64,000 bases of DNA from Bacilli bacterium (GCA_045628045.1 JAZQOV010000011.1:68912-132911), one strand, 5' to 3'; shown: positions 1,311-52,834, numbered from the stretch's first letter. Notes: generated by a model not told the origin, from the sequence alone. Program-made: numbers and translations.

Positions 1311-4300
1311 ATGAAAAATAGAAATTTTCTAAAAAATTCTATTCGCTTATTACTCCCTTCTTCGCTTGTTTTGGGTGTACTTTTTGGTGTTTCAAAAGGA
1401 CCAGTTAAAAAGGCTGATGCTTATACTAAAGATGGTCAATTGGCTACAAAAATTGATTTAAAAGATAGTACTGAAGAAGAAATCAAAAACTACTATTCAG
1501 ATTTAAACGGTTTAGACGCTAATCAACTTCAGGGAAATAACCTTCTTAAAAATTTAAAGCCAATTCTTAAGAATGGTCAAAAATATTTCGCTTATGATAG
1601 TAGCGGCGATGACTTATGGAAGATGTATGAAATCATTGATAGAGACTGGGTTAAGTCTCCTGCAAGTGAAATTTCAGGTTATGATCCTTCTACTAAAATA
1701 ATTACTGGTTATAAGTATGGCACTTCTTCTACAAATAAAGGAACAAACCCTTACATTCATGCACTTTATGTAGATAGAAACGTTGATAACCAAACTAGAG
1801 CTTGGGACGATCACCAACAAACTCAATGGGGTATAAACAGAGAACATATATGGCCAAAATCACAAGGTTTTGATGCTGAAGGCGCTGGAGGCGCACGTGG
1901 TGACCCTATGCACTTGTGGGCAGGAAACGGCCGTGTCAATGGAACCGAGCACAATAACAATATGTATGGTTTTGTTGATAAGTCAAAGTCTTATACAAAT
2001 CCATATGATGCAAAAGGATTTAAAAATCTTAGAGATAATTATTCTGGAAAATCTTTAACAGTCCCTTCTTCAACTGATACAGTTTTTGAACCTCAAGACT
2101 CAGATAAAGGCGATATTGCTAGAGCAATTTTTTATATGGTCGCTAGATACAACAACATTGCAGGTAATGACTCAACAATTAACCAAGATAATCCAAATCT
2201 TGCTTTAAAGCAAACCACACAAGCATTAGCAAAGTACACAACTACATCTAGCAACAAACAAACAGGCTACATGGGTCTAATGACCGACCTTTTATATTGG
2301 AATCACTTAGATCCTGTTGATGAATTTGAAATTCATAGAAATAACCTGTTATTTAATAACTACACACATAACAGAAACCCATTTATTGATTACCCAGAAT
2401 GGGCAGACTATATTTGGGGTAAGCCAGTTTATAACGGAAGAAACTATGTTTCATATAGTTCGACACCAACTGGATCTGTAAATTTATCAACAGATGTTAT
2501 TAATGGATTTAAAGGTGAACAACCTCAACAAGTTACAGTAACATCAATTGAAATTACTAAAAAACCAACGAAGTTGGTTTATAATTCTGGTGAAACTTTA
2601 GATACTGCCGGAATGGAAGTTAAGGCTCATTTGAGCAATAACACCACAAGAATTCTTTCTGCAAGTGATTATGCAGTTACTCCAAGCGGAACATTAAAAA
2701 CAACTGATACACAAGCAACTATTACATATGAAGGAAAGAGCGCTAGCTTTGCTATCGCTGTTAAATCTAGTGGTGGATCAACCACAACGCCAGCTGTTGT
2801 TGGCACTGTTTTGTTAGAAGAATCTTTTGCAGATTTTAAAGCTAATGATACTCCGACAAAAAATGGTAGTAGTACTACTGTTTATAACAATGCAACAGTC
2901 ACATATAAATGTAATGATGGCGGATCAGCAACAAAAATTTATAATGAAACTAATGCAGGGGGAACGTCTCCTGAAATTTTAATTTCTAAAAATAACGGAT
3001 CATTTGTTATTTCTAATGTGCCAACAGGAAACGCAACAGAAATGACTCTTACTTATAAAAGTAATAATACAAATAATAGTGTTAATACTACTTCTACAGA
3101 TTATTCCGTTTCTGGTTCGCCTAAAAATTATACTTTTTCATTAAAAAGCGGATGTACTGCTCCTGAGACCATATCAATTTCAATTGATAACTCTAAGGGC
3201 AGCAATACTAGAGTTGACGACATCAAACTTGTGGTTAAAACCGCTGGCACAAGCGGATCGACAAATGTAGATGTTTCTTCAATAACTTTAAATAAAAATT
3301 CAGCTACAATGGAAATAGGTACTTCAGAACAACTATCTGCAACTATAAGTCCAGATGATGCAACAATCAAATTAGTGTCCTGGTCATCATCAAATTCTTC
3401 TGTTGTTGAAGTGTCTGATGAAGGCGAAATTACCGCAAAATCCCCAGGAAATGCCACAATTACTTGTTCGGCCCTTGATGGATCTGGCGTGACTGCTACA
3501 TGCACTATAACTGTAAATGCGCCTGTAACGTTAGAATCGATTACATTATCTGGTGAATATTCAACAGAGTTCTATATTGGAGATCCATTCTCCTCAGATG
3601 GACTTGTTGTTACCGCTAATTATAGTGATAACACTCATATTGATGTCACAGACGACGTTGAAATTACTGGTTATGACATGGAAAGTGAAGGAACACAAAT
3701 TGTTACAGTTTCGTATGGTGAAAAAACAGCAACGTATACAATCGAAGTTAAAGAAAAGGGTCTTGCATCTAATGAAATTATGTTCATTGCATCGCAACTT
3801 GGTTTAGTTAACGGAGATAACCTTGAATCATATACTGATTCTATTGCAACCTTAACATTTGTTAAAAATTCTGGAACACAACCAAAATACTATAGTTCAA
3901 ATTCTTCTTTCCGTGTTTATGCAAAAAATAGTTTTACTATTGTAGGAACAAAAAACATAGCAAAGATTGAATTTGAGATGACTTCTACAGATTATGTTGG
4001 AAGTAACCCTATTACTGCAAATGTAGGAACTTTTTCTAGCAATGTTTGGACTGGTGAAAGTAGCTCAGTAACATTTACAGTTGGCGGATCAAATGGTCAA
4101 AGAAATATTGTTAGTATCAAGGTTACTTATGATGAAAGTTCGGCAGATGTAAAAGTATTATCTAGTGTTAGCTTAAGCGGTACATATAAGACCGAATTCT
4201 TTAGAAACGAAACATTTACATCCGAGGGATTGATTGTGACTGCACATTACACTGACGAAACATCAGCTGTTGTAACTCCAGAATCTATTTCGTCACCAAC

Positions 4301-6611
4301 AATGACTACAACTGGCACAAAGGATGTCACCGTTTCATATAGCGAAAACGGCATAACTAAGTCCGCAAGTTACACTATTCAAGTAATTGCGATTGTTGCC
4401 ACCTCTATTGAATTAACAGGAAATTTCAAAACTGAATATGAAGTTGGAGATACTTTTTCTACTTCTGGAATGACAGTAGTTGAGCATTTTAATAATGGTA
4501 CAACTGCTAATCATAACCCGTCATCATGCACGATTAGCGGATATGACTTAAACGTGCCAGGTAAGCAAACTGTTACTGTTTCCTATAATGGTAATTCTAC
4601 ATCTTATGAAATTATCGTTAAAAGCAATGGAAAAATAATTGAAGAAAGATCCGTTTCATTAAGCATAGCAACATATGCTGCAGCTAACAGCTGGGCCAAT
4701 GATACAAAATATTCAACAATTAATGCTAACTCGGATATAACATTTACAGCAGCAGGTGGAGGTAATACCGGAAAATATTTTACATCCGGAAATAACTGGA
4801 GATTTTATCAAAACGAAACACCAACCCTAACAATCTCATGCCCATCTAAAGGAGTCATTAAGTCTGCTAAAATAACATATACAGTATCTAATACTGGCAT
4901 TTTAACTTTTGGCTCTTCAAATATAAAATCGGATGAGACAATATCTATAAATGCACAAAGTGCAGTTTTTGGTGTAGGAAATACAGGAATAGCAACTAAT
5001 GGTCAAGTGCGCATTACAAATATTGATGTTCTCTACGAAATAACAATAGATGATAGTGGTAAAACTTTAGAATCAATTTCTCTTTCTGGTGAATACACAA
5101 CCTCATTTACTGTTGGTGATGAATTCTCCTTTGGGGGAACAGTTACCGCAACATATTCTGATAATACAACTGAAGATGTAACTAGCGAAGCAACATTTAG
5201 CGGTTATGATCTTTCAACTTCTGGTGATCAAACAGTTACAGTCGCCTTTGATGACGTAACAACAACATATGGAATTATTGTAAATGAGATAGATCCAACC
5301 GCCTCATTGACTTTAAACTTTGATTTAACGAAGAATCCAGGAAATTGGCCGACAGAAAACTCAACTGCACTAACGAATTATTCATATTCTTTAAAAGGAA
5401 CAGACTACACATTTAGTCTTAGGAATGTTAAATGTAATTCTGGTTATCTTATGCTTACTAAAACAGCAATTTTAGGTCTTCCAGCAATTAATGGTTATAA
5501 ATTAACAACTATTGTTGCAAGCAATTCTGGTGGTTGTTCAACATCTACAAACGTTGGTGTTTCCTCATCCACAGATGTTGCAGATTATATAAGCGGTGGT
5601 GAAGCTATAAAATGGGGAACTCAAGGCTCTACATATACATATGAGTTGGCTGAAACACAAAGCAATACCATGTACTACTTAATTGCAACGAATGCAAATG
5701 CTCAAATTGTTAATCTTGAATTAACTTACACACCTTTTGTTGAAATTAATGCAAATGAATACTCTTTAGTAACAAATGTCAATGAATTAAGAACTGGTGA
5801 TGAAATCATTTTTACCGCATATCGTAATACTAATAAAACTGCTTATACAATGAGCAGCGAATATGGCGGCCATGTTACTGCATCATCATTAACATTTGAT
5901 TCTGAGAAAATGATAGCCAATGAGGATTCTATGTCTTTCATTATTGAAAGAACTGGTAATAATTTTAGATTTAGGAATTCCTCCGGCAATTATTTATGTA
6001 CAACTAAAAAAGACACTGGCGGATCAGGTTTTGAAAGTGGCACATTAACAAATAAATCATTGTTCAATCTTTCATATGAAAATGATGTTATGAATGTTGT
6101 TGGCGTTTCAGAAAATACCGACTTCAAGGTTTTACAGTTTAACTATGCTACTGGAAGCCCACGTTTTGCGTTCTATCAAACAGCAACACAAACCCAGGTT
6201 TCTATTTACAAAAAGACAAGTCAGATTTATGCTGATTCATGGGCAAAATCCTTCTTAGAAAGCACAGATCACTGTAATGTTTCAGACTGGTCAGCATTAA
6301 AGTCTTCATACAATAATTTACAGGACATCGTAAAGGAAGAAATTTCTAGTGTCGAAGCTAATGCTTCTACTGACTATTCATTAAGAGCTCAAGCAATGGC
6401 AAGATATGATTACATGCTTGCTCGTGGTGATATTGACCAAGCAAATAATTTCATTTCTGAAAGAGGTGTAGCAGGTCATAGACCAGTTCTTATAGGTTCA
6501 ATTCTTTTGGAAAATGATAATACACTTTTGATTGCAATTATCTCATTAGTTGGAGTGTCTATTATTGGTGGTTATTTCTTTGTGAAACGCCGCAAAAATG
6601 AGGAATTATAA
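1311..6611 (+). CDS. giant membrane-anchored extracellular nuclease: Endonuclease-I family domain, Big_2 domain, 5 or more ~85-aa Ig-like (group 3-type) repeats, C-terminal TM anchor
   Basis: Signal peptide MKNRNFLKNSIRLLLPSSLVLGVLFG starts at the ATG at 1311. The track's 1197 start lies upstream of the signal peptide. NREHIWPKS and DPMHLWAGNGRVNGTEHNN match the Endonuclease I (EndA/Vvn) EH…P and DLHxLxPAxGxVNxxRSN motifs. Repeats such as SITLSGEYSTEF…YTIEV occur. The C-terminus is …LLIAIISLVGVSIIGGYFFVKRRKNEEL. Confidence 0.75.
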   Translation: MKNRNFLKNSIRLLLPSSLVLGVLFGVSKGPVKKADAYTKDGQLATKIDLKDSTEEEIKNYYSDLNGLDANQLQGNNLLKNLKPILKNGQKYFAYDSSGDDLWKMYEIIDRDWVKSPASEISGYDPSTKIITGYKYGTSSTNKGTNPYIHALYVDRNVDNQTRAWDDHQQTQWGINREHIWPKSQGFDAEGAGGARGDPMHLWAGNGRVNGTEHNNNMYGFVDKSKSYTNPYDAKGFKNLRDNYSGKSLTVPSSTDTVFEPQDSDKGDIARAIFYMVARYNNIAGNDSTINQDNPNLALKQTTQALAKYTTTSSNKQTGYMGLMTDLLYWNHLDPVDEFEIHRNNLLFNNYTHNRNPFIDYPEWADYIWGKPVYNGRNYVSYSSTPTGSVNLSTDVINGFKGEQPQQVTVTSIEITKKPTKLVYNSGETLDTAGMEVKAHLSNNTTRILSASDYAVTPSGTLKTTDTQATITYEGKSASFAIAVKSSGGSTTTPAVVGTVLLEESFADFKANDTPTKNGSSTTVYNNATVTYKCNDGGSATKIYNETNAGGTSPEILISKNNGSFVISNVPTGNATEMTLTYKSNNTNNSVNTTSTDYSVSGSPKNYTFSLKSGCTAPETISISIDNSKGSNTRVDDIKLVVKTAGTSGSTNVDVSSITLNKNSATMEIGTSEQLSATISPDDATIKLVSWSSSNSSVVEVSDEGEITAKSPGNATITCSALDGSGVTATCTITVNAPVTLESITLSGEYSTEFYIGDPFSSDGLVVTANYSDNTHIDVTDDVEITGYDMESEGTQIVTVSYGEKTATYTIEVKEKGLASNEIMFIASQLGLVNGDNLESYTDSIATLTFVKNSGTQPKYYSSNSSFRVYAKNSFTIVGTKNIAKIEFEMTSTDYVGSNPITANVGTFSSNVWTGESSSVTFTVGGSNGQRNIVSIKVTYDESSADVKVLSSVSLSGTYKTEFFRNETFTSEGLIVTAHYTDETSAVVTPESISSPTMTTTGTKDVTVSYSENGITKSASYTIQVIAIVATSIELTGNFKTEYEVGDTFSTSGMTVVEHFNNGTTANHNPSSCTISGYDLNVPGKQTVTVSYNGNSTSYEIIVKSNGKIIEERSVSLSIATYAAANSWANDTKYSTINANSDITFTAAGGGNTGKYFTSGNNWRFYQNETPTLTISCPSKGVIKSAKITYTVSNTGILTFGSSNIKSDETISINAQSAVFGVGNTGIATNGQVRITNIDVLYEITIDDSGKTLESISLSGEYTTSFTVGDEFSFGGTVTATYSDNTTEDVTSEATFSGYDLSTSGDQTVTVAFDDVTTTYGIIVNEIDPTASLTLNFDLTKNPGNWPTENSTALTNYSYSLKGTDYTFSLRNVKCNSGYLMLTKTAILGLPAINGYKLTTIVASNSGGCSTSTNVGVSSSTDVADYISGGEAIKWGTQGSTYTYELAETQSNTMYYLIATNANAQIVNLELTYTPFVEINANEYSLVTNVNELRTGDEIIFTAYRNTNKTAYTMSSEYGGHVTASSLTFDSEKMIANEDSMSFIIERTGNNFRFRNSSGNYLCTTKKDTGGSGFESGTLTNKSLFNLSYENDVMNVVGVSENTDFKVLQFNYATGSPRFAFYQTATQTQVSIYKKTSQIYADSWAKSFLESTDHCNVSDWSALKSSYNNLQDIVKEEISSVEANASTDYSLRAQAMARYDYMLARGDIDQANNFISERGVAGHRPVLIGSILLENDNTLLIAIISLVGVSIIGGYFFVKRRKNEEL

Positions 6612-7072
6612 TGAGCGAGATTAAAGTGCTTGTTAACAATTCCAAAGCAAAATTCCTCTATTTTTTAGAGGATTTTTTGGAATGTGGTATTGAACTCAAG
6701 GGTTCTGAGATTAAATCAATTAGGCAAAATGGCGCATCATTAAGAGACTCATATGTCATCTTCAAAAATGAAGAAGCATTCATCTTAAATATGAACATTG
6801 CTCCTTATGAAAATGGTAACAATTTTAATCATGAACCAAATAGAACTCGTAAGCTTCTTCTTCATAAGAATGAAATACTTAAATTAGAGAAGAAGGCTAA
6901 AGAGAAAGTTATGACTATTGTGCCTACTAAAATTTACCTCAAAAAAGGCAAAGTTAAAGTAGAGATCGCTTTAGCGAAAGGTAAGAAATTATTTGATAAA
7001 CGTGAGACCATCAAAAAGCGTGATGATGAACGCATGATGGCAAAGATGAAAAAGGGATTCGAAAGACAATAA
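6611..7072 (+). CDS. smpB: SsrA-binding protein SmpB
   Basis: Full-length 153-aa protein with the typical SmpB sequence (…GIELKGSEIKSIR…LLLHKNEILKL…). Confidence 0.95.
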   Translation: MSEIKVLVNNSKAKFLYFLEDFLECGIELKGSEIKSIRQNGASLRDSYVIFKNEEAFILNMNIAPYENGNNFNHEPNRTRKLLLHKNEILKLEKKAKEKVMTIVPTKIYLKKGKVKVEIALAKGKKLFDKRETIKKRDDERMMAKMKKGFERQ

Positions 7073-7179
7073 TGAATCTCTTTTTTATCACTCATTATTA
7101 ATAAATTAATAACTAATTGCGCGCAAGCGGATTCACTTGCTCACGCACGTATAAATAAGTAAAATATTCCTAATTAATT

Positions 7180-10100
7180 ATGGAAAAAAAGCACAAAATA
7201 TTTTCTTCGATAGGCATTTCTGCGATTGCACTTTTCTCTCTCGTTATTGCAGAACGTGGAATCGATGGATCTTTTTTGTCTGCAAAATTTCGTAATGTAA
7301 GTCAATACGGTTTATCACTTAATTCATCAAACTCATTTGCTGGTGGTAGTGGAACCAAAGTTGTTTATACAAATGGTAGCAATCCAGTTACATTTTCATA
7401 CACTTCTTGTTCTTCATTAAGTGGTGGACACGTAAAAATTAATGAAAACGGAACAATTGCTAACGAAGATCATATTAGATCTATAACTGGTGTTACACCT
7501 GTTTTTACATGCTCCAGCGAAGCAACTAGTTTTGAATTTAGAGCATCATATGATAAAGAAACTTGGGGTCAATGGGGGTCTTTAGCAAGTGGTAAAACAC
7601 GTCAATTTGAATCTGGACCTTATTACTTTGAATTTAAGGCTATTAATGGAGCAGTTAATTTAACTTCTCTTAATTTTGAATATTCATGTGAAAGAAATTG
7701 GACTGTCGAACCAGAAGGTGAAGATAGTGGAACTAAAGAATTTGTGAAAGTTGCATCTGCTTTGGATGACTATGCTGGAACATATTTAATTGTTTGTGAA
7801 TCAGAAGGTGTTGCATTTGATGGTTCTTTAACTAAATCTACAAGCACAGCGATTAGTGCTTCAGGAAATAAATTCGCTGTCACAATCACTGATGGAAAAA
7901 TTGCCTATACAGACGATATTGCTAACAAAGTTTTTGAAATTACTGATGACGGTGAAGACTCTAGTGGTAATATGACTTATCAAATCACATCACATTCGGG
8001 ATATAAAATTACAAATACTGCTGATAGCAATTCTATGAGCGTTTTAGATGTTGATGATGATACAGACTATTATAACTGGATTGGTTTTTGTGATAATGAT
8101 GGATCAGATAATGATTTCTATATTAAGGGAAGCGGAGGATCTTATTTAAGATACAATTCATCTAATACACAGTTCAGATATTACAAATCATCAACTTACA
8201 AAGGACAAGCAGAAGTTTTCTTGTATAAATTATCAAATGGATCTGTCCCGATTGGAATTCCAGAATATGAAGCAAAACTTCAAATAACTGATAATAATTC
8301 CGATAACTATATTTATGGTCATTCATTAAGTGAATCATTTGGAACTGAAGATTTTAAAGCATCTGTTTTAATGTCTAACGGAACTGAAACAGCCATTGAT
8401 CCAAGCCAATTAACTATTGATATTGAAAAAGGTGGTGCACATTATGCATCTAATACCGCGCTTAATAGCGAAGGCACTTATAACGTTACAATTTCATATG
8501 GAGAATTAGCTCCAGTTAAATATCAAATCACAGTAAGTAAGATTGCTGTTGCATCTGTTACTTTTGATAAGAGCTCATTACGCTTGAAACCATCAGAAGA
8601 TTACACACTTACTGCAACTGTATTACCAGAAACTGCATTTGACAAGTCTTTGACTTGGACTTCTACAAATAATTCAGTTGCGACAGTTTCTACATCGGGT
8701 AAAGTTACTGCTGTAGCTGATGGAACTGCAACAATTAAGGCAACCGCAAATAATGGTATATATGCATCTTGTGAAGTTACTGTTGCTTCAGCAGGACTTG
8801 TTGATCCAGGAATGCAAGCAGCTTATGAAGCAGCTATTGCTTTAAGCAATTCCTCCGAATCTAACAGTTCGTATGAATTTACTGGTGTTGTAGTTGGCAC
8901 AAGAACATCAGGATCAAATAAAGATGTGTATGTCCAAAGTGGCGATTATGCACTAGACGTTTATAACAGTGGAAAAACGATGGCTTATAAAGATGAAGTC
9001 ACTGTAAAATCCACATTAACAAAATATTCTGGAATTCCTGAAACAAAGACCATTAAGTCGTTCACAAATAATGGTCAATCAGTGTTGCCGCAAGCAAATG
9101 TAATTAATTCTGCATCAGATTTAGCTGATGCTAAGATTAATACATTATTAAATGCATCTGGAACAATTAAAACATTAAGTGCTTCAGGGTCGAGCATTAC
9201 GGGTTCAAACGATGTTACAATTACTTTAACTACATCAAATGGCGACATTGCTGTTTTTGCAAAGAAGAATTCCTATAGCGGAATAAAGACAACTCTCCAA
9301 GGATTTAAGGTCGGAGATATCATGAATATCGAAAATGGTATTAGAGGTATTTACAATACAACTGACCAAGTTTTACTTGTTTCAGAATCAGTTGTTACAA
9401 AAGGTACTCCAGTACACGTTGATGTTACAGGAATTACAGTTTCTCCAACAAATGTTGATGTCAACGTTAATAGCACAACAACATTAACTGCAACAATCGC
9501 ACCAGCAAACGCATCTAATAAAGGTGTTGTTTGGTCTTCAAGCAACTCAAATGTCGCGTCTGTTAATCAAAATGGTGTTGTTTCAGGTCATATTGCAGGA
9601 CAGTCTGCAACTATTTACGCAAAATCAGCTGAGAATAATTCAATTTCGGCTTCATGTACAGTTAATGTTAAAGCAATATCAGTTCAATCCGTGTCTTTAG
9701 ATCAAAATACTGCAACTATAGCTATTGGTGAAGAATTGACATTAACTCATACAATCTCACCATCTACTGCATCTAACCAAAATGTAACATGGTCAAGTAA
9801 TGATCAATCTGTTGCAACTGTTAGCAATGGTGTTGTTTCGGCGTTAGCTGAAGGTGAGGCAACTATTACAGTTAAGACTGATGATGGAAATCACACAGCA
9901 AGTTGTGTTGTTACTGTTACTGAAAAATCAGCAGTAAAAGAATGGGTTTTAGTTACTACGGCATCACAATTAATTAAAGATAACTTATATGTTATTGCTT
10001 GTAATTCTAAAGGCACAACTGCCGGAGATATTAGCAGTTCAATCATGGCTTCATTAGGTTCTACTTTTAGCAATGACAAATCAAAAATTACAACATTAAA

Positions 10101-12723
10101 TAATGATACAGTTCAATTAAAACTTGGTGGTACTACTGATAAATGGACATTTGCCAATTCAGATGGTGATTTATTAGGTGCTACTGCAGTAAAGAAACTT
10201 GCATGGGGCAGCGGCACAACAACTTGGAAGATTACATTCTCTGGAAATGATTGTAACTTAACAAATACATCATCAAGTTATGGAAGCATGTCATATAACT
10301 CAAGCAGTCCAAGATTTACTACATATAGTGCAACACAAACTGCAATTCAACTTTATACTCTAACTGGTGGTGCAACTCCAACTCCAGAACCAACATTAGA
10401 ATCAATTAAGGTTGATTCAAGTTCTCATAGAACATTCACCGTAGGTGATACTTTCGCTAAAGAAACCATTATGGCTGTTTATTCAGACGGTAATGAAGTT
10501 GATGTTACAAGCGAAGCAGCATTCTCTGGTTACAACATGAATTCTGCAGGAACTCAAACAGTCTCAGTTTCATATGGCGGAAAATCAACTTCATATCAAA
10601 TTACTGTTAATGCAAAAGTTGTAACATTAACAAGCATTACTGTTTCTGAAAATCATAGAACATTTAATGTAGGCGATACTTTCGTTGGAGAAACTGTCAC
10701 TGCTTACTATAGCGACGGATCTCATAAAGAAGTAAATGCAACATTCTCTGGTTATGACATGAGCACTGCTGGTACATATACCGTAAGTGTTTCATACACT
10801 GAAGGTGGAATCACAAAAGACACATCTTATACAATTACAGTTAAATCTTCAGGATCTGGTGGTGGCGGAGCATCAGGAACACATACAATTTTATCTTCCG
10901 ATGTGCCAACTTCATATGAAACAGATGGTGAAAAAACTGTAGATGATATCACATATGTGTTTAATCAAGTTGCTAATTCATATACACCTGGTTATATGCA
11001 ATGTAAGAAGAGCGTTTCTTATATTTACAACAAAACCGCTATTGCCGGTTTAAAGTCTATTAGTATTAATACAAGTAGCAAATCTTGGGGTGGCTCAGTT
11101 TATTATGGAACTAGTGAAGAACCATCTGCAAATAAAGCAACTTTAAGTGGTGGAAAATATTCCATTCCTTCTGGAAACTCATATTTTAATATTGTTACAA
11201 ATGGATCAACTGGTTATATTGAATCAATTGATATTGAATACTCAACAACTCCTGTTAATCCAACAGCTATTTCAATAAGTGGTGAAAATGAATTAACTCC
11301 AGGTTCAAGTACACAATTATCGCTTTCATTTAGCCCAAGCAACTGCAATGTTAAAGATGTTACTTGGTCTTCAAATAATACTTCAATCACAGTTGATCAA
11401 ACTGGAAAAGTTACAGTTTCAAGTACCGCTAAAGTTGGTGCTACTGCAACTATTACAGCAACTTCAAGAGAAGTTGGAACAGTAAAAGGAACATTCACTA
11501 TTACTGTTGTAGATAAACCGGTTGTTCAAAAAGATGCGTGGACAATGCTCATTTATATGTGCGGTGCTGATTTGGAGAGTGGGTATGCATCCAATAATGA
11601 TGGCTGCGCAACAGATGACTTAAAAGAGATCTATTCTTTGAGGAATAGTTTGCCTGACGATGTGAACATCGTTGTTCAAGCCGGCGGCGCTAAGGCTTGG
11701 TCATCTGAATATTCTTCCGTTATTAGCAAGGATAAAAGAAATAGATTCCACCTTACAAAATCTGGTTATGTAAAGGATTCACAAGATAGTAGAGTTAATA
11801 TGGGGTCAGAATCTTCTTTGGAAGACTTTGTTGAGTGGGGTTTAGAAACTTACCCGGCCGAAAAGGTTGGATTGGTTTTCTGGGATCACGGTAGTGCTAT
11901 GGGAGGTTGCTGTTTTGATGAACAATATAGCAGTGATGGACTTACTCCAGCTGAAGTAGCATCAGCAGTGCCAACAGCAATTTCAAAATCTGGATACAAT
12001 CAAAATCTCGAGTTTATTGGATATGACTGCTGCTTGATGTCTATACAAGACATTGCCGGATTAAATGCTCAATATGCAAATTATATGATTGCTTCGCAAG
12101 AATCTGAATGGGGTTATGGTTGGTCATATGATAAATTTGTTGATAATTTAATGAGTAAGAAATCAACAACCACGATTCTAAAGGCTTGCGTTGATGGTTT
12201 CTCTCAAGATACAACTTCTTCCTATAATAACTGGGGTGATCCAAATGATCAAACCTTAGCGTATTACAACTTACAAAATTGGGCTGCATACGAAAATGCT
12301 TGGGAAGATTTTGCTGACTACTTAAGCACTAGCGTTATTAAATCGTCTAGCAACTGGACTACATTTACCAAAGTGGTAAACCAAGCTCAAAAATACGGGT
12401 ATGATAGTGATTCAAATTATCAAAAGTATAATGGAGGTTATTGCTATGATATTTTCGATGTTAAGGATTTCCTTAACAAGATTAAATCTAGCAACGATTA
12501 TAAGAATAATAGTTCACTAATGACCAAGGTATCTACAATTGAAACAGCATACACTGGGTTAGGTATTTATAGTAAGTGTGGGTCTGCCGCTGGTAATTCA
12601 AACGGACTATGTTTCTTCTGCCCATTATCTGGTTATAATGAGATAGATGGAGAATATGCCTCAGCAAATACAAGATTTAAAGAATGGCGATCACTTTGCG
12701 TTGAATACGGTAAATGGTATTAA
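7180..12723 (+). CDS. giant surface protein: Big_2 domains, Ig-like repeats, shared DUF-like domains, C-terminal clostripain-like (peptidase C11) domain
   Basis: Signal peptide MEKKHKIFSSIGISAIALFSLVIA. Several Big_2-like segments (…VTFDKSSLRLKPSEDYTLTATVLPE…, …VTGITVSPTNVDVNVNSTTTLTATIAP…). Repeats like those of the preceding gene (SIKVDSSSHRTFTVGDTF…YQITV). The C-terminal ~400 aa contain WTMLIYMCGADLE…, WDHGSAMGG (His) and FIGYDCCLMS (Cys), the clostripain family signature. Confidence 0.75.
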   Translation: MEKKHKIFSSIGISAIALFSLVIAERGIDGSFLSAKFRNVSQYGLSLNSSNSFAGGSGTKVVYTNGSNPVTFSYTSCSSLSGGHVKINENGTIANEDHIRSITGVTPVFTCSSEATSFEFRASYDKETWGQWGSLASGKTRQFESGPYYFEFKAINGAVNLTSLNFEYSCERNWTVEPEGEDSGTKEFVKVASALDDYAGTYLIVCESEGVAFDGSLTKSTSTAISASGNKFAVTITDGKIAYTDDIANKVFEITDDGEDSSGNMTYQITSHSGYKITNTADSNSMSVLDVDDDTDYYNWIGFCDNDGSDNDFYIKGSGGSYLRYNSSNTQFRYYKSSTYKGQAEVFLYKLSNGSVPIGIPEYEAKLQITDNNSDNYIYGHSLSESFGTEDFKASVLMSNGTETAIDPSQLTIDIEKGGAHYASNTALNSEGTYNVTISYGELAPVKYQITVSKIAVASVTFDKSSLRLKPSEDYTLTATVLPETAFDKSLTWTSTNNSVATVSTSGKVTAVADGTATIKATANNGIYASCEVTVASAGLVDPGMQAAYEAAIALSNSSESNSSYEFTGVVVGTRTSGSNKDVYVQSGDYALDVYNSGKTMAYKDEVTVKSTLTKYSGIPETKTIKSFTNNGQSVLPQANVINSASDLADAKINTLLNASGTIKTLSASGSSITGSNDVTITLTTSNGDIAVFAKKNSYSGIKTTLQGFKVGDIMNIENGIRGIYNTTDQVLLVSESVVTKGTPVHVDVTGITVSPTNVDVNVNSTTTLTATIAPANASNKGVVWSSSNSNVASVNQNGVVSGHIAGQSATIYAKSAENNSISASCTVNVKAISVQSVSLDQNTATIAIGEELTLTHTISPSTASNQNVTWSSNDQSVATVSNGVVSALAEGEATITVKTDDGNHTASCVVTVTEKSAVKEWVLVTTASQLIKDNLYVIACNSKGTTAGDISSSIMASLGSTFSNDKSKITTLNNDTVQLKLGGTTDKWTFANSDGDLLGATAVKKLAWGSGTTTWKITFSGNDCNLTNTSSSYGSMSYNSSSPRFTTYSATQTAIQLYTLTGGATPTPEPTLESIKVDSSSHRTFTVGDTFAKETIMAVYSDGNEVDVTSEAAFSGYNMNSAGTQTVSVSYGGKSTSYQITVNAKVVTLTSITVSENHRTFNVGDTFVGETVTAYYSDGSHKEVNATFSGYDMSTAGTYTVSVSYTEGGITKDTSYTITVKSSGSGGGGASGTHTILSSDVPTSYETDGEKTVDDITYVFNQVANSYTPGYMQCKKSVSYIYNKTAIAGLKSISINTSSKSWGGSVYYGTSEEPSANKATLSGGKYSIPSGNSYFNIVTNGSTGYIESIDIEYSTTPVNPTAISISGENELTPGSSTQLSLSFSPSNCNVKDVTWSSNNTSITVDQTGKVTVSSTAKVGATATITATSREVGTVKGTFTITVVDKPVVQKDAWTMLIYMCGADLESGYASNNDGCATDDLKEIYSLRNSLPDDVNIVVQAGGAKAWSSEYSSVISKDKRNRFHLTKSGYVKDSQDSRVNMGSESSLEDFVEWGLETYPAEKVGLVFWDHGSAMGGCCFDEQYSSDGLTPAEVASAVPTAISKSGYNQNLEFIGYDCCLMSIQDIAGLNAQYANYMIASQESEWGYGWSYDKFVDNLMSKKSTTTILKACVDGFSQDTTSSYNNWGDPNDQTLAYYNLQNWAAYENAWEDFADYLSTSVIKSSSNWTTFTKVVNQAQKYGYDSDSNYQKYNGGYCYDIFDVKDFLNKIKSSNDYKNNSSLMTKVSTIETAYTGLGIYSKCGSAAGNSNGLCFFCPLSGYNEIDGEYASANTRFKEWRSLCVEYGKWY

Positions 12724-15647: not shown

Positions 15648-16217
15648 ATGGTTGGTATTGTCCTTGCGGGTGGTTATTCATCCCGAGCCAAAGTTAATAA
15701 GCTCCTCCTGGAGGTAGATCGTAAACCTCTTATTCGTCATACAATTGACACTTTGAAACCTTTCTGTAAAAAGGTTTTTGTTGTGACAGGAAAATATCAT
15801 GATGAACTTAGTCAAGTTTTAGATGATGTTGAGATTGTTTGTAACAAAGATTTTGATTTAGGAATGTTTTCTAGCGTGCTTGCAGGAATTAATGCTGCTC
15901 TAGGCGAAGATGTTTTACTTATCCCAGGTGATATTTCTAATGTGGCTAAAACCACTATTGAAGCTTTGCTTTACGGAAATAAAGACATCCGTATTCCTTC
16001 TTATGAAGGAATTACAGGACATCCTGTTTTTATTTCGAAGAAATATGTTGAACTTTTATCTCATGAACCAGTTAGTTCCAGATTATGTGATTTTCTTAAC
16101 GCGCACGAGTGTGCAAAGGAAGTTATCAGTGTAAATGACCCTTTTATCAATTTTGATATTGATACGATTGAGGATTACAACAGATTTATTAATACAAGAA
16201 AGGAAGTTACTTTATGA
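15648..16217 (+). CDS. MobA-like NTP-transferase (molybdenum cofactor cytidylyl/guanylyltransferase family)
   Basis: N-terminal GIVLAGGYSSR…NKLLL motif. Overlaps the next gene by 4 nt, in an operon with the Mo-hydroxylase subunits. Confidence 0.7.
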   Translation: MVGIVLAGGYSSRAKVNKLLLEVDRKPLIRHTIDTLKPFCKKVFVVTGKYHDELSQVLDDVEIVCNKDFDLGMFSSVLAGINAALGEDVLLIPGDISNVAKTTIEALLYGNKDIRIPSYEGITGHPVFISKKYVELLSHEPVSSRLCDFLNAHECAKEVISVNDPFINFDIDTIEDYNRFINTRKEVTL

Positions 16218-16981
16218 AAGCAAAATCTTTCATTAGACCTTCTTCTTTAGAAGAGGCCTATAAGCTTGTTAAAGCTTCACCAAAGAACAAAATTGTCGCT
16301 GGTGGACTTTGGCTTAAAAAAGGAAACGCTGAAGCAGAAACTCTCATTGATATTTCATCTCTTGGCCTAGACAAAATCTTAGACAAAAAAGAATACGTTG
16401 AAGTTGGCGCAATGGTTTCCCAAAGAGAACTTGAAAAATCTTCACTTGTTCCTGAAGTAATTAGAGAAGCAACTGCATTAGTTATGGGACCAGCATTCCG
16501 TAATATCGCGTCAGTTGGAGGATCAGTTTATGGAAAATATGGTTTTTCTGACATTGTCACAGCATTACTTGTATACAAAGTAGAACTCGTTTTCTACCCA
16601 GAAGCAGTAATCACACTTGATGAATACGTCAAAAAACCTGGATTTTATGATGGAATTTTAACTCACATAAGAATTTACAAAGATAATCGCAAGGCTTTCT
16701 TTAAGAAAGTTGAAATTACTGCACTTGATTATCCAATTCTTAACGTTGCAGTTTCCGAAGGAAAAGAATGCAAAATTGTTATTGGTTCACGCCCACTTGT
16801 TGCATGCGTTTGCGAGCAAGCAAGCGCACTTGCTAGCAAAGGTGAAAAGGATTTTGAAAAGATCGCTGCTTTAGCAGTTGAAGAAACAAAATTCGGTGAT
16901 TCAATCGCCACCAAAGGTGAATATAGAAAACAACTTGCACTCACTTATGTAAGACGTGGTCTTGAGGAGGTTAACAAATAA
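16214..16981 (+). CDS. molybdenum hydroxylase FAD-binding (medium) subunit, CoxM/XdhB-like
   Basis: 255 aa with a CO dehydrogenase flavoprotein-like fold. Operon context. Confidence 0.7.
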   Translation: MKAKSFIRPSSLEEAYKLVKASPKNKIVAGGLWLKKGNAEAETLIDISSLGLDKILDKKEYVEVGAMVSQRELEKSSLVPEVIREATALVMGPAFRNIASVGGSVYGKYGFSDIVTALLVYKVELVFYPEAVITLDEYVKKPGFYDGILTHIRIYKDNRKAFFKKVEITALDYPILNVAVSEGKECKIVIGSRPLVACVCEQASALASKGEKDFEKIAALAVEETKFGDSIATKGEYRKQLALTYVRRGLEEVNK

Positions 16982-17433
16982 TGTTAGTCAAATTCAATCT
17001 CAACGGACTTGATATCGAAGTCAATGTAAAACCAGGCGAGTATCTTTTAGATACACTTAGAGCTTATGGTGTTAAATCAGTCAAAAAAGGCTGTGATGGT
17101 TCCGCATGCGGAGTCTGTACAGTTCTTCTTGATGATAAACCAGTTTTATCTTGCTCAGTTTTAACTGCAAAAGTTGAAGGTCACAAAGTGACCACAGTTG
17201 AAGCAATTCAAGATGAAGCTGCTAAATTATCCGAATGCTTCTCTCGTGAAGGTGCAGATCAGTGCGGCTTCTGTAATGCAGCATTCGCACTTATGGTGCA
17301 CGCACTCAAAAAAGAAAATCCACATCCAACAGATGAGGAAATCAAAGATTATATGGTCGGAAACCTTTGCAGATGCACAGGTTATCAATCTCAACAAAAA
17401 GCAATTAAAGCTTATTTAGGAGGTAAGAAATAA
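16981..17433 (+). CDS. molybdenum hydroxylase [2Fe-2S] small subunit
   Basis: CDGSACGVCTV and …CGFCN…NLCRCTGY cysteine motifs. Confidence 0.85.
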   Translation: MLVKFNLNGLDIEVNVKPGEYLLDTLRAYGVKSVKKGCDGSACGVCTVLLDDKPVLSCSVLTAKVEGHKVTTVEAIQDEAAKLSECFSREGADQCGFCNAAFALMVHALKKENPHPTDEEIKDYMVGNLCRCTGYQSQQKAIKAYLGGKK

Positions 17434-19748
17434 TGAAAAAGAATTTCAAAGTTGTAAACAACTTAACTCCTAGTGTTGATGGAAAAGGTCTTATGCAAGG
17501 TCGTGCTGTTTACACAGACGACATTGCTCCTCAAGGTGCTTTAATTGTTAAAATTTTAAGATCACCACATGCTTTCGCAAGAATTAAATCAATTGACGTT
17601 AGTGAAGCTGAAAAACTTCCTGGCGTTGCATGTATTTTAACCAAGGATAACGTCCCACACGTTTCATTTACACGTGCAGGACAAGGTTATCCTGAACCAT
17701 CACCATACGATAAATTCATCTTGGATGAATATGTTCGTTATGTTGGTGATGAAGTTGCTGCAGTTGCAGCAGTTGATGAAGAAACTGCTTTAGCAGCAAT
17801 GAAGCTCATCAAAGTTGATTATGAGGTTTTAAAACCAGTCCTCAACTTTGAAGAAGCTTTTGAAAACGAATCAGTTATCCACCCAGAAGATGGAATCCAT
17901 GACATGTTCCCAATTGGTTTTGAACCAAAGAAGAATGTTGCAGCATCTTATGAGATGGAAGTTGGCAACGTCGAAGAAGAATTAAAGAAATCTGAAGTTG
18001 TTGTCGAAGACACATTCTATTCACAAGCACAAGCTCACGCTATGATCGAGCCACACACTTGTAATGCACGCTTAGACGAGCACAATAGACTTGTTGTTTA
18101 TTCCACAACTCAAACTCCATATCATATGCGTAGAATCATCTGCAAGACCTTAGGTCTTCCAGTTGATAGAGTTAGAGTCATTAAACCAAGAGTTGGTGGT
18201 GGCTTTGGTGGAAAACAAGCTTTCCATGGTGAAATGTTTGTCTCCCTTGTTACTTTAAGAACAAATAAACCTGCAAAATGTGTTTATACTCGTGAAGAAG
18301 TATTTGGTTGTTCTTATACGAGACACCCAATGAGAATCTCACTTAGAGTTGGTGCAAATAAAGATGGTGTTATTAACGCAATCGATTGCCGCACTCTTTC
18401 AGATACAGGTGCTTATGGTGAACACGCTTTAACAGTCTTTATGATTGTTGGTTCTAAAGTTTTGCCACTTTATAACAAAGTTAAAGCTGTTAAATTCGGT
18501 GGAAGAGTTGTTTACACGAACCATGTATCTGCGGGCGCATATCGTGGTTATGGTGCTATTCAAGGTAACTACGCAGTTGAATCCATCATTGATGAACTTG
18601 CGGAAAAGCTTCATATGGATCCAATTAAGCTTCGTGAAATTAACTCCATGAAGGAAAAAGAAACTTCCCCAATCTTTAAGATTATGGGTGAAGGTACCGA
18701 AGGTACAGAAATGATTATGGAAAGCTGCAAGCTTCCATATTGTATTAAACGTGGTCGTGAACTTATGGATTGGGACAAGAAATACCCAGTTAAGAAAGTT
18801 GGAGATCACAAAATTAGATCAGTTGGTTGCGCAATTGCCATGCAAGGTTCAGGAATTCCATTCTTAGATATGGGTTCTTGTACAATTAAACTTAATGATG
18901 GTGGCTCATACATGGTCACCGTTGGTGCTACTGATATTGGACAAGGCTCTGATACAGTTATTTCTCAAATTGTTGCAGAAGCTCTTCAAACAACAATGGA
19001 CAAAGTCATTATCTATTCATCTGATACAGACTTAACTCCATACGATTGTGGTGCTTACGCTTCTTCAACAACCTATGTTTCTGGTAACGCAGCATATAAT
19101 GCTGCTTGCAAGATGAGAGAAAGACTTCTTAAAGAAGCTGCAGTTGAACTCAAAGTAAAACCAGATGAGGTTGAATTTGATGGAACAACATTTAAAGCTG
19201 GCAAGAAGTCAATCTCACTTGTTGATTTATCAACAGGAAGACTTTATAACAACAATACACATCAAATTGCTGTTACAGAATCTTATCATGGTCATGTTTC
19301 TCCACCTCCATTTATGGCAGCATTTGGAGAATTCGAATTTGACACAGAAACTTACGAATACAAGATGATTAAGTACGTTACAGTTACTGACTGTGGTACA
19401 ACAATTAACCCAGCATTGGCCAAAGGCCAAGTTGAAGGTGGTATTATCCAAGGTTATGGCATGGCTTCAAGTGAAGCGGTGCTTTATAGCTCAAATGGAA
19501 AACTACTTTCAAATACTTTTGATACTTATCACATTCCAACTGTCAAAGAAGTTGGTGAGCTTGTTACTGAATTTGCTGATTCATATGAACCAACAGGTCC
19601 ATTTGGCGCAAAATCAGTTGGTGAAATTGGTATTGATACACCTCCAGCAGTACTCTGCAATGCAGTTTACAATGCTTTCGGTGTAAGAATTCATCATTTA
19701 CCAATCACACCAGAAAAAATCTTTGAAACAATGAAGGCTAAAAAATAA
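17433..19748 (+). CDS. xanthine dehydrogenase-family molybdopterin-binding large subunit
   Basis: 771 aa. Aldehyde oxidase/xanthine dehydrogenase a/b hammerhead and MoCo-binding regions (GGGFGGK, …GQGS…). Confidence 0.85.
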   Translation: MKKNFKVVNNLTPSVDGKGLMQGRAVYTDDIAPQGALIVKILRSPHAFARIKSIDVSEAEKLPGVACILTKDNVPHVSFTRAGQGYPEPSPYDKFILDEYVRYVGDEVAAVAAVDEETALAAMKLIKVDYEVLKPVLNFEEAFENESVIHPEDGIHDMFPIGFEPKKNVAASYEMEVGNVEEELKKSEVVVEDTFYSQAQAHAMIEPHTCNARLDEHNRLVVYSTTQTPYHMRRIICKTLGLPVDRVRVIKPRVGGGFGGKQAFHGEMFVSLVTLRTNKPAKCVYTREEVFGCSYTRHPMRISLRVGANKDGVINAIDCRTLSDTGAYGEHALTVFMIVGSKVLPLYNKVKAVKFGGRVVYTNHVSAGAYRGYGAIQGNYAVESIIDELAEKLHMDPIKLREINSMKEKETSPIFKIMGEGTEGTEMIMESCKLPYCIKRGRELMDWDKKYPVKKVGDHKIRSVGCAIAMQGSGIPFLDMGSCTIKLNDGGSYMVTVGATDIGQGSDTVISQIVAEALQTTMDKVIIYSSDTDLTPYDCGAYASSTTYVSGNAAYNAACKMRERLLKEAAVELKVKPDEVEFDGTTFKAGKKSISLVDLSTGRLYNNNTHQIAVTESYHGHVSPPPFMAAFGEFEFDTETYEYKMIKYVTVTDCGTTINPALAKGQVEGGIIQGYGMASSEAVLYSSNGKLLSNTFDTYHIPTVKEVGELVTEFADSYEPTGPFGAKSVGEIGIDTPPAVLCNAVYNAFGVRIHHLPITPEKIFETMKAKK

Positions 19749-21052
19749 TGAACGATTTACTTGTCAAAAACGGTTTAGTATTCCTAAAAGGAAAATGGGT
19801 TAAGACCAACTTAGCCGTTTTAGGCGAGAAAATTGTTTATATTGGTGAAAAAGAACAAGAAGCAACAGAAGTTATTGATGCTGAAGGACTAAAAGTCCTT
19901 CCAGGATTAATTGATCCTCATATTCATTTTGAACTTAATTGCGGAAGAGTTACTTCTTGTGATGATTTCTATTCAGGTTCTATTGCCGCTGCTTATGGTG
20001 GAGTTACAACTTATGTTGATTTCCTTGATCCTACAAGTAACGCTGAGGAACTTGAAAAGTCTTATTATGAACGTATTGCTTTGGCAAAGAAGTCAGTTGT
20101 TGACTATCACATGCACGCTTGCATAAAAATGCCAAACGGTGATTTAGAGGAATACGTTAAGACCGTTGTAAAACTCGGAATGCGCACAATTAAGTTGTTT
20201 ACAACTTATAGTGACACAGGACGTAGAACTTATGACAAAGACATTATTGAATTACTTAAATTAAGTAAAAAATATAATGTTATGATTTGTGCTCATATTG
20301 AAAATGATGACTTAATTGACCTTAGAGAAGGTTATACCTTCAAGGATCTTCCAGTTTCTCGTCCAAGTATCTCTGAGACTAGCGAAGCTCTTAAACTTGC
20401 TAAGATTGTCCGTGAAACTGGTGGTAATTTCTACATGGTTCACTGCTCTAGTGGCGAAACTCTTAAGGCGCTCAAAGAGCAATTTAGTGATATTTTAGGT
20501 AAAAACTTCTTTGTGGAAAGTTGTCCTCAATATTTTGTATTTAATAATTCAGTTCTTGAGGAAGATAATGGCAAGTTATTTACATTTGCTCCACCTCTAA
20601 GAAGTGAAAGAGAAAGACAGCTACTTGTTGCTAACTATAAAGACATTATTTCTATTGGCACAGACCATTGTGCATTTATGAAAAAAGAGAAGGATTTCCC
20701 ACGTCTAATGGGCTTCCCACTTGGCGTTGGTGGAATCGAACATAGTTTCTCAATTATGTATAAAAGATTTGGTGAAGAAATCATCGATAAAATGTCAAAA
20801 AACACGGGAATTCTCCAGGATTTTCCAACTAAAGGAGAACTTGAAGTTGGTAAAGATGCAGACATTTCTATCTTTAAAGAAGTGCCAGATTTTATTGAAA
20901 AAGAAAACCATGGAACTTGTGATTATTCGATATATGATGGAGTCCTTGGTTCAGGTGAATTTGTACACGTAATTAATCGTGGAAAATTTGTTATCAAAAA
21001 CAGAAAACTTATTCCACATGTTGGAAAAGAAATTGTTTGTGGGGTGAAATAA
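19748..21052 (+). CDS. cyclic amidohydrolase (hydantoinase/dihydropyrimidinase family, HyuA-like)
   Basis: DPHIHF metal-binding motif and amidohydrolase fold. Genomic context matches the E. coli ygeW-hyuA-ssnA-type cluster. Confidence 0.7.
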   Translation: MNDLLVKNGLVFLKGKWVKTNLAVLGEKIVYIGEKEQEATEVIDAEGLKVLPGLIDPHIHFELNCGRVTSCDDFYSGSIAAAYGGVTTYVDFLDPTSNAEELEKSYYERIALAKKSVVDYHMHACIKMPNGDLEEYVKTVVKLGMRTIKLFTTYSDTGRRTYDKDIIELLKLSKKYNVMICAHIENDDLIDLREGYTFKDLPVSRPSISETSEALKLAKIVRETGGNFYMVHCSSGETLKALKEQFSDILGKNFFVESCPQYFVFNNSVLEEDNGKLFTFAPPLRSERERQLLVANYKDIISIGTDHCAFMKKEKDFPRLMGFPLGVGGIEHSFSIMYKRFGEEIIDKMSKNTGILQDFPTKGELEVGKDADISIFKEVPDFIEKENHGTCDYSIYDGVLGSGEFVHVINRGKFVIKNRKLIPHVGKEIVCGVK

Positions 21053-21053
21053 T

Positions 21054-22346: not shown

Positions 22347-22348
22347 CT

Positions 22349-30679: not shown

Positions 30680-30691
30680 GGAGAAAAAACC

Positions 30692-48789: not shown

Positions 48790-48970
48790 GAATAAAATTA
48801 TATCATTTTTTATTAAATTTAAATATAAAAGAAAATGTATGCAACTATAATAAATATTTTATTCTTTATTCTATATAACAAAAAACGGGCTATTTAGGAG
48901 AGCGCTTGCACAAACTATAGACATATGCGTGCCTATGTATGAAAATTTCGTAGAGGAGAAATTGAAAAAA

Positions 48971-51079: not shown

Positions 51080-51098
51080 AAAAAGTGAGGAGAAAAAA

Positions 51099-52718: not shown

Positions 52719-52802
52719 AACATAGTTTCAATGGTTCTATAAAATTTAAGAGAAGTTGAATAGTGATTTCTTAAAATCTTAGTAGAATCACCTAAAATTA
52801 AA

Positions 52803-52834
52803 GGCGGACATATCATGCCCGCCTTTTTGTTTTT
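52803..52834 (+). terminator. intrinsic terminator
   Basis: GGCGGACATATCATGCCCGCC hairpin plus T-run. Confidence 0.6.

Follow-up and report, generated by a model that had tools for sequence, protein, structure and literature searches.

Two giant enzymes encoded in a 64,000-nt stretch of DNA from Bacilli bacterium (GCA_045628045.1, JAZQOV010000011.1:68912-132911; hereafter the window, with positions counted from its first letter) are probably independently acquired, long modular exo-enzymes, most likely scavenging nutrients. The analysed part of the window, positions 1311-12723, is filled by three co-directional open reading frames (ORFs), encoding a 1766-aa nuclease giant (p1), SmpB, and a 1847-aa giant ending in a C11 protease domain (p2) (Table 1). 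The initial annotation of this locus had described the repeats and the coordinates correctly, and the motifs it quoted were all located in the translations (as REHIWP, GRVNG, WDHGS, and YDCCLM). Both catalytic families are known, neither catalytic domain being new in itself, and both architectures recur in metagenomes, p1 and p2 being enlarged versions of layouts common in this lineage. New here are a predicted beta-trefoil fold with a wide distribution and an association with nucleases and proteases, a module resembling carbohydrate-binding modules (CBMs; module A), a cysteine-free Endonuclease I mounted on a stalk, and a conserved placement of the nuclease beside a purine-catabolism-like cluster in one genus-level group.

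Catalytic domains and topology of p1 and p2

The N-terminal domain of p1 was assigned to Endonuclease I, as initially proposed, by a Pfam search (Endonuclease_1, aa 142-363, E 4.3e-26, 92.5 bits with a cut-off of 25, profile positions 62-235 of 235). REHIWP at aa 177 contains Glu178-His179 (nt 1842-1847), GRVNG at aa 207 contains Asn210 (nt 1938-1940), and Arg196 sits in GGARGD; in an alignment of 12 homologues, the Glu, His, Arg, and Asn (E141, H142, R159, and N173 in domain numbering) were invariant. The general base in Endonuclease I enzymes is the His, with a loop Arg stabilising the leaving phosphate (PMC5714182). Alignment to Escherichia coli EndA (sequence from MG1655) using hhalign placed p1 HLWAGNGRVNG on NLQPSVGEVNG (91% probability, E 9.5e-7), and covered the Asn motif (GEVNGDRGN in EndA) and the C-terminal helical part; it begins after the EH motif, and REHIWP was matched to EndA WEHVVP by eye, at the level of the motif and outside the hhalign alignment. 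A profile of the 12 sequences reached Vvn weakly, through its C-terminal helices, and a phmmer search of the domain against the PDB returned spurious Fis matches only.

On these residues the nuclease domain looks catalytically intact. Like EndA, Vvn, Dns, and Bsn, it has the EH motif, the loop Arg, the G-x-VN-G metal-binding motif, and a hidden Markov model (HMM) match far over threshold; its C-terminal helical part aligns to both EndA and Vvn, and p1 is also secreted, non-specific cleavage being expected by analogy. The domain differs from EndA, Vvn, Dns, and Bsn in its length (~370 aa versus ~210 aa), having gained an insertion and an extended N-terminal part that is conserved, and whereas those enzymes are small soluble periplasmic or secreted proteins, the p1 domain continues into a ~1,300-residue stalk that ends in a membrane anchor. 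EndA and Vvn also depend on disulfides, unlike the p1 domain, which has no cysteines: none was found in p1 aa 1-533, and EndA has 8. Since a disulfide-stabilised fold that becomes active on export (EndA and Vvn; 8 Cys) is a trait of the proteobacterial branch (PMC5714182), the lack of Cys in p1 points to a difference between sub-branches, and not to exclusion from Endonuclease I. Bsn prefers RNA, and the substrate of p1 may be DNA or RNA. Mollicutes membrane nucleases and streptococcal cell-wall-anchored nucleases belong to the SNase-like or EEP families, and are lipoproteins or LPXTG proteins; p1 would resemble them as a tethered, non-specific nuclease in a setting of limited biosynthesis or exposure to host DNA, and differs from them in belonging to the His-Me finger enzymes and in being held by a membrane helix at its C-terminus.

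More than 1000 relatives of the nuclease domain were found (56-69% identity, typically 420-640 aa, from Bacilli metagenome-assembled genomes (MAGs)), usually laid out as signal peptide, nuclease, Big_3/Big_2, membrane helix, and Lys-rich tail, and among the matches listed no homologue exceeded 641 aa. Since this short layout is the norm, p1 was taken to be an elongated member of a membrane-anchored nuclease family. It shares the signal peptide, one or more immunoglobulin-like (Ig-like) domains, and the helix with a basic tail with short Endonuclease_1 proteins of Bacilli and Acholeplasmatales MAGs (P0006, P0040, and P0113; 450-640 aa), and is three times longer, its additions being two CBM-like sandwiches, module C, the segment 489-652, the trefoil, and a helical juxtamembrane domain.

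p1 is a type-I surface protein, in which signal peptide, nuclease, stalk, trefoil, helical domain, membrane helix, and basic tail follow one another; an 'xA↓Y' junction ahead of the nuclease domain is common to its homologues, and the order of trefoil, helical domain, membrane helix, and Lys-rich tail recurs in P0129/P0130 and in the locus of one close relative (L001, below). Pfam assigned the stalk repeats to Big_3 (E 1e-32, 4 stretches) and Big_2. Because the signal peptide is N-terminal and the single membrane helix C-terminal, the nuclease is placed at the membrane-distal end. Sortase (LPXTG) and lipoprotein anchoring were rejected for both giants: no LPXTG was found near the C-terminus of either, neither has a lipobox within its first 40 residues, and the match of Gram_pos_anchor to p1 covers the helix and tail only, under the cut-off (E 0.079). 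As a separate observation, the window carries lgt (prolipoprotein diacylglyceryl transferase; 40223-40984, +), indicating that the organism makes lipoproteins.

For p2, the C11 assignment was likewise borne out by Pfam (Peptidase_C11, aa 1459-1787, E 4e-29, 102.7 bits with a cut-off of 25.8, profile positions 2-296 of 359). WDHGS at aa 1568 provides His1570 (nt 11887-11889), and YDCCLM at aa 1615 provides Asp1616 (12025-12027) and Cys1618 (12031-12033). A phmmer search against the PDB aligned WDHGS with WSHGT, and DCCLMS with DACYMS, of the C11 zymogen 6mzo (E 2e-6), and of 119 homologues, 114 keep the His motif and 117 the Cys motif. The roles of His133, Cys179, Asp177 (S1), and Lys147 have been described for PmC11, which prefers Arg/Lys (PMC4850288). 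Asp1616, two residues ahead of Cys1618, is the counterpart of the PmC11 S1 Asp177, and by analogy predicts cleavage after Arg or Lys. Lys1603 is the sole Lys/Arg in the linker between His and Cys, aligns with a Lys of 6mzo, and is matched by basic residues in homologues, which makes it a candidate self-processing site, with a spacing unlike that of PmC11 Lys147.

The C11 domain has the Pfam match, the His/Cys dyad, and the S1 Asp in common with clostripain, PmC11 (Parabacteroides merdae), and the C11 proteases of Bacteroides thetaiotaomicron, as well as a basic residue in the linker where these enzymes self-process, and it looks catalytically intact on sequence. Unlike solved C11 structures, to which its local similarity is only ~25-30%, and unlike clostripain and PmC11, it ends an N-terminal extension of 1,450 residues; the candidate processing Lys also lies elsewhere than PmC11 Lys147. 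It had been called uncommon for a multi-Ig stalk to end in a C11 domain, a view that the relatives do not bear out for this lineage. Among 145 relatives of the domain, mostly 450-700 aa with Big_2 followed by C-terminal C11, this arrangement accounts for most of the 119 homologues listed; several are lipoproteins, i.e. surface enzymes, and one Acholeplasmatales protein combines signal peptide, trefoil-like domain, Big_2, and C11. At least 13 cluster representatives (680-1833 aa) carry one or more trefoils and a C-terminal C11, and ten of them, 1036-1833 aa in length, have N-termini matching the N-terminal module of p2 (aa 26-182; phmmer 1e-15 to 2e-31), so that giants with this module occupy at least ten clusters at 50% identity. 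By sequence, p2 is a member of this uncharacterised giant C11 family: P0170 (1833 aa), P0255 (1679 aa), and P0196 (1609 aa) have the same N-terminal module, trefoil(s), C-terminal C11, and N-terminal hydrophobic segment, and like p2 have no C-terminal anchor, while their internal modules differ from those of p2 in number and order.

The sole hydrophobic segment of p2 is aa 6-25, and its C-terminus is the C11 domain itself, as in the ten giant relatives. Both giants had been called anchored; this is shown only for p1, with its C-terminal membrane helix, since p2 has no C-terminal membrane helix, lipobox, or LPXTG. The hydrophobic segment of p2 could be a cleaved signal peptide or a signal anchor; in the latter case the protease, like the nuclease of p1, would be held at the distal end. 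Pfam repeats of p2 are Big_2 (E 1e-49, 4 stretches) and Big_3. No Pfam match, PDB sequence match, or phmmer match among the collected proteins was found for p2 536-748, where an impression by eye of two OB-folds was dropped on the same searches, and phmmer found no relative of p2 1224-1362 among the collected proteins.

Accessory modules shared with other secreted enzymes

A domain of ~140 aa (SPRF), noted initially as common to both giants together with Big_2 and Ig-like repeats, was found once in p1 and twice in p2, and the three copies align mutually; both this domain and the Ig-like repeats are indeed shared. Ten segments of p1 and p2 outside Pfam domains had no Pfam match even at E <= 10. 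With a SPRF HMM and alignment built without any window sequence (window-free), the HMM gave E-values of 8e-58 for p2 copy 2 and 9e-7 for the single copy of p1; the latter aligned to the family alignment by hhalign at E 4e-47, and the divergent p2 copy 1 joined the family by profile-profile comparison (hhalign, 95.9%, E 5.7e-9). Structure prediction on p2 copy 2 using AlphaFold2 (AF2; predicted local distance difference test (pLDDT) 90.7, predicted TM-score (pTM) 0.86) gave a model that is a twelve-strand, three-fold beta-trefoil, and its top Foldseek matches in the PDB were all beta-trefoils (StrLNBase, FRG1, lysenin, BEL lectin, HA33, fascin, and FGF/IL-1; TM-score by query (TMq) 0.46-0.62). 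The predicted fold and the extracellular accessory role in modular enzymes are those of BEL, HA33, the lysenin C-domain, the StrLNBase CBM, and ricin-B/CBM13 lectins. Membership of ricin-B/CBM13 was rejected on the missing Pfam match at E <= 10 and the lack of QxW repeats in all three copies, and SPRF further differs from lectins of this type by accompanying nucleases and proteases rather than glycoside hydrolases. PF26918, taken from precomputed annotations, was rejected as the trefoil, being also present in proteins with only Big_2 besides the nuclease.

An HMMER scan of 1.84 billion representatives, in which families were counted as cluster representatives at 50% identity, returned 3,873 SPRF proteins at E <= 1e-3, of which 404 reach E <= 1e-30. 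The majority are long proteins of several domains, in which SPRF is often present in 2-6 copies. Small proteins made of the SPRF domain were seen in the initial database search, some of them consisting of the domain, a helical region, a membrane helix, and KKKKYQ, mirroring the p1 C-terminus. Among the top 148 representatives, 20-23 have an N-terminal Endonuclease_1 and 13 a C-terminal C11, and others carry Peptidase_C10, M6, S8, or Endonuclease_NS, many with Flg_new repeats; since such domains recur in this set, the SPRF module was concluded to travel with secreted nucleases and proteases. From signal-peptide and C-terminal sequence features of the matches, and from features only, the trefoil family seems to span Bacteroidota and Bacillota. 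Four of the matches (P0125, P0126, P0122, and P0142) show Bacteroidota-type features, namely a C-terminal segment resembling a type IX secretion system (T9SS) sorting domain (...IRDGQKFTVTGVRVQ) or Peptidase_C10 with an I69 inhibitor domain.

Module A occurs twice in p1, both copies being matched at 3e-27 by a window-free HMM, and recurs in the same set of proteins as the SPRF trefoil. Its model (pLDDT 90.8) is a beta-sandwich that resembles CBMs, the best PDB match, to a pectate-lyase CBM, being weak (8wc1, TMq 0.56, E 2.5e-3). Module C of p1 has two copies in a 4599-aa protein, P0147 (phmmer 1e-52 and 9e-35).

It is tentatively proposed that the SPRF beta-trefoil is a widespread, previously undescribed accessory family, specialised for secreted nucleases and proteases and not for glycosidases, that might bind one defined polymer common to the substrates of these enzymes or to the cell surface. 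The ligand might be nucleic acid, by way of a conserved Lys-Lys/Arg patch, or a matrix or envelope glycan. If this is true, SPRF and module A would form a system by which gut bacteria target exo-enzymes that do not degrade glycans. The practical gain is annotation of two recurrent modules, the beta-trefoil (~3,900 clusters) and the CBM-like sandwich, on many secreted nucleases and proteases.

Genomic setting and function

The closest smpB genes (86-90% identical) belong to 'Bacilli/Bacillales bacterium' MAGs from animal gut and to Candidatus Fiminaster equi. Candidatus Fiminaster has been placed in order RFN20, family CAG-826 (PMC8957277), and the host belongs to the same RFN20/CAG-826 group, as an uncultured inhabitant of the gut related closely to Candidatus Fiminaster. 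In the loci of the four closest genomes (L001-L004), the order of nuclease and smpB was kept in all four, and p2 was at this position in none. Three of them (L002-L004) run, in order, through a 315-aa gene (-), the nuclease giant (1690-1762 aa), smpB, an ECF-S gene (-), a 254-aa gene, MobA, and the xanthine dehydrogenase (XDH) cluster; L001 has a nuclease protein of 1018 aa ending in the same trefoil, helical domain, and membrane helix. Since L001-L004 are without p2 at this site, p2 was taken to be a lineage-specific insertion between smpB and the ECF-S gene.

Over its first 490 residues, p1 reaches only ~48% identity with its positional orthologues (L002:4705-9990, L003:4702-9990, and L004:4918-9990), with neighbours at 96% (XdhA), 80% (FAD subunit), and 88% (SmpB), and the membrane-proximal half is swapped, L002-L004 carrying 7-8 extra Big_3 where p1 has module C, the trefoil, and the helical domain. 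On these two grounds p1 is a surface protein that evolves fast and shuffles its modules. Upstream of the nuclease giant, two of these loci (L002:2-3628 and L004:3-3881) encode another membrane-anchored giant, with Big_2/Big_3 repeats and, internally, a region distantly similar to Endonuclease_1 (25-34% identical to the nuclease domain of p1); its ORF runs past the end of the locus, and its N-terminal part in L002 is protease-like by eye.

A purine-catabolism-like cluster lies 3 kb downstream of p2 (window 15648-31702, +), and is collinear with the nuclease gene in L001-L003. It comprises a MobA-like gene, two XDH-family sets of FAD, 2Fe-2S, and molybdenum cofactor (MoCo) subunits, hydantoinase-like and SsnA-like amidohydrolases, a PreA-like flavoprotein with 4Fe-4S, two pyridoxal phosphate (PLP) enzymes, YgeY (686 bits with an NCBIfam cut-off of 321), and a carbamoyltransferase. 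Such a gene set has been associated with anaerobic purine and urate degradation in gut bacteria (10.1101/2025.04.24.650524; 10.1101/2022.07.24.501321), and in gene content the cluster resembles one of this kind. For another Bacilli lineage (L084:1168-12052, also L085 and L082), a 683-aa Big_2-C11 gene adjoins an amino-acid permease, ~6 kb from two tandem Endonuclease_1 genes adjoining a pyrimidine-nucleoside phosphorylase. Owing to the purine cluster, and to the permease and phosphorylase contexts, nutrient acquisition was favoured, and the scavenging suggested in the initial annotation fits this setting. RFN20/CAG-826 bacteria are common, uncultured inhabitants of the mammalian gut whose feeding is largely obscure; an anchored nuclease beside a purine cluster suggests that they feed on extracellular nucleic acid, and ties the locus to the attention now given to how gut bacteria turn over purines and urate.

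For p1, the proposed mechanism would be export, removal of the signal peptide, and retention in the membrane by the C-terminal helix, with a stretch of ~1,300 residues, built from Ig-like spacers and from putative binding modules (two CBM-like sandwiches, one trefoil, and two further modules), holding a cysteine-free nuclease of the Bsn/EndA type at the far end. His179 would activate water, Asn210 with Glu178 would hold the metal, and extracellular DNA and/or RNA would be cut without sequence preference. p2 would be exported by its N-terminal hydrophobic segment, which may be cleaved or kept as a signal anchor, and its C11 protease (His1570/Cys1618, S1 Asp1616) is predicted to cut after Arg or Lys. 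The accessory modules probably keep both enzymes on polymeric or particulate substrates, and the oligonucleotides or nucleosides and peptides released would be taken up into salvage and catabolism, including the downstream purine cluster.

Four alternatives were weighed, each with less support than nutrient acquisition. Secreted gut-bacterial C11 proteases and anchored pathogen nucleases have roles in colonisation and immune evasion, and p1 and p2 could be mainly Ig-like and lectin-like adhesins on mucus or epithelium, with the nuclease degrading neutrophil extracellular traps (NETs) or mucosal DNA, and the C11 protease cutting host proteins, for example immunoglobulins, mucins, or antimicrobial peptides. 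The lectin-like trefoil and CBM-like folds, the very fast divergence of p1 relative to its neighbours, the shuffling of modules among close relatives, and the mammalian-gut habitat of the host genus are consistent with this; it was nevertheless considered unlikely, since there is no sign of a host ligand, thousands of metagenomic proteins combine these modules with varied hydrolases, and the conserved neighbours are catabolic genes. Attack on, or attachment to, other microbes was given a slimmer chance: a bacterium of reduced genome would use the stalks to bind cells or plant-fibre biofilms, and would digest DNA and proteins that are released or lie in the matrix, in an epibiotic, predatory, or biofilm-remodelling mode of life. 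Both proteins reach very far, their binding modules have folds like those of carbohydrate-binding proteins, and the relatives come from rumen and hindgut fibre-associated communities, all of which would suit it, but no toxin, immunity, or secretion-system genes adjoin p1 or p2, and it is hard to separate from plain scavenging. For the breakdown of NETs or of biofilm matrix, which the initial annotation had also suggested, the evidence speaks neither for nor against.

That p1 and p2 work as a functional pair, as the nuclease/protease pairing of the initial annotation implied, was rated improbable. Some C11 enzymes activate other secreted proteins, and p2 could in this way mature or shed the nuclease or other surface proteins by Arg/Lys cuts in the stalk or juxtamembrane region, which would account for their being neighbours; p1 and p2 lie 570 bp apart on the same strand with three module types in common, and the nuclease and C11 genes within ~6 kb in the other lineage also speak for it. 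The idea is nonetheless the one weakened most, since p2 is missing at this position from all four closest genomes, which are collinear and retain the nuclease giant; the shared modules also accompany many unrelated enzymes, most nuclease homologues examined have no C11 neighbour, and nuclease relatives elsewhere lie away from smpB. That the nuclease keeps out foreign DNA instead of serving in feeding, by restricting transformation or the entry of phages and plasmids, a role proposed for the proteobacterial family members (periplasmic EndA, Vvn, and Dns; PMC5714182), is the least probable of the four, as the enzyme sits on the tip of a ~1,300-residue stalk far from the membrane, p1 has binding modules, no disulfides, and catabolic conserved neighbours, and p2 is left unexplained.

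Several points weigh against nutrient scavenging. The lectin-like and CBM-like folds name no ligand and rest on weak PDB matches (TM 0.5-0.6, E 1e-3 to 1e-2), the trefoil has no QxW motifs, and five segments have no family assignment (p1 489-652 and 1328-1472; p2 26-182, 536-746, and 1224-1358). The purine link is proximity in one genus-level group, and is effectively a single evolutionary observation; nuclease relatives examined in other lineages do not adjoin smpB and lie in unrelated contexts. The divergence pattern of p1 would also be expected from host- or phage-driven diversifying selection on an adhesin. No relevant literature was found that joins beta-trefoil with extracellular nuclease, Peptidase_C11 with Big_2, or RFN20 with nuclease.

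Features of the locus and the rest of the window

Table 1. Features mapped in the analysed part of the window (nt positions in the window; aa positions in p1 or p2).
Feature	Position (nt)	Strand	Residues and content	Basis
p1	1311-6611	+	1766 aa from ATG at 1311	ORF, translation, Pfam, hydrophobicity
p1 signal peptide	1311-1421	+	aa 1-37; hydrophobic aa 10-30; likely cleavage ...KKADA↓YT	
p1 Endonuclease I (His-Me finger) domain	1422-2525	+	aa 38-405	Pfam, homologue alignment
p1 stalk	2535-5288	+		Pfam, repeat mapping
p1 stalk, part 1			Big_3 409-486; beta-rich segment 489-652; Big_2 653-735; Big_3 740-815	
p1 stalk, part 2			module A 818-948; Big_3 x2 950-1105; module A 1108-1252; Big_3 1252-1326	
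p1 module C	5292-5726	+	aa 1328-1472; no Pfam match	
p1 predicted beta-trefoil (SPRF)	5718-6191	+	aa 1470-1627, membrane-proximal	fold from model of p2 copy
p1 helical juxtamembrane domain, membrane helix, tail	6192-6608	+	aa 1628-1735; ~1738-1758; KRRKNEEL	hydrophobicity
smpB, tmRNA-binding protein	6611-7072	+		Pfam, NCBIfam
p2	7180-12723	+	1847 aa; secreted or N-terminally anchored; C-terminal C11 protease domain	
p2 hydrophobic segment and N-terminal module	7180-7725	+	aa 6-25, then 26-182	hydrophobicity, phmmer
p2 predicted beta-trefoil, copy 1	7726-8235	+	aa 183-352; divergent subfamily; ends ...TQFRYYKSSTYKGQAEVFLYKL	
p2 middle part	8242-9918	+	Ig-like 355-456; Big_2 455-535; segment 536-746; Big_2 x2 747-913	
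p2 predicted beta-trefoil, copy 2	9919-10395	+	aa 914-1072; nearest to family consensus	AF2, Foldseek, HMM
p2 segment before C11	10393-11508	+	Big_3 x2 1072-1223; beta-rich 1224-1358; Big_2 1359-1443	
p2 Peptidase C11 (clostripain-like) domain	11524-12720	+	aa 1449-1847	Pfam, alignment to 6mzo

The frame of p1 is open from 1197, and the ATG at 1311 was used as the start, the L001-L004 orthologues beginning with the same MKN... sequence. The GC content is ~33-36% across the locus. An alternative genetic code was rejected, as both giant frames are open under table 11, with TGA as the stop in 1 of 21 checked ORFs. Exact-sequence database look-ups of p1 and p2 returned no record.

The middle gene was identified as smpB by Pfam (E 1e-56) and by two equivalog models (TIGR00086, 190 bits with a cut-off of 119; NF003843, 197 with a cut-off of 130). 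Its ATG overlaps the p1 stop codon in the junction sequence TAATG, so p1 and smpB are almost certainly co-transcribed; no convincing terminator was found in the 107-nt spacer before p2. smpB is a housekeeping gene, joined to p1 in transcription through gene order only, and its position between the giants is accidental. A functional link of the giants to smpB or tmRNA was rejected, as no tmRNA or tRNA gene was found within the window, and the adjacency is confined to one genus-level group and missing for other nuclease homologues.

Elsewhere in the window, a 394-aa ORF at 37729-38913 (+) has a weak RHS-repeat match. Four successive ORFs of 716, 539, 916, and 438 aa occupy 48929-57066 (+), with no Pfam match except a weak RYYR-CCHC in the first, and might be a defence or mobile module.

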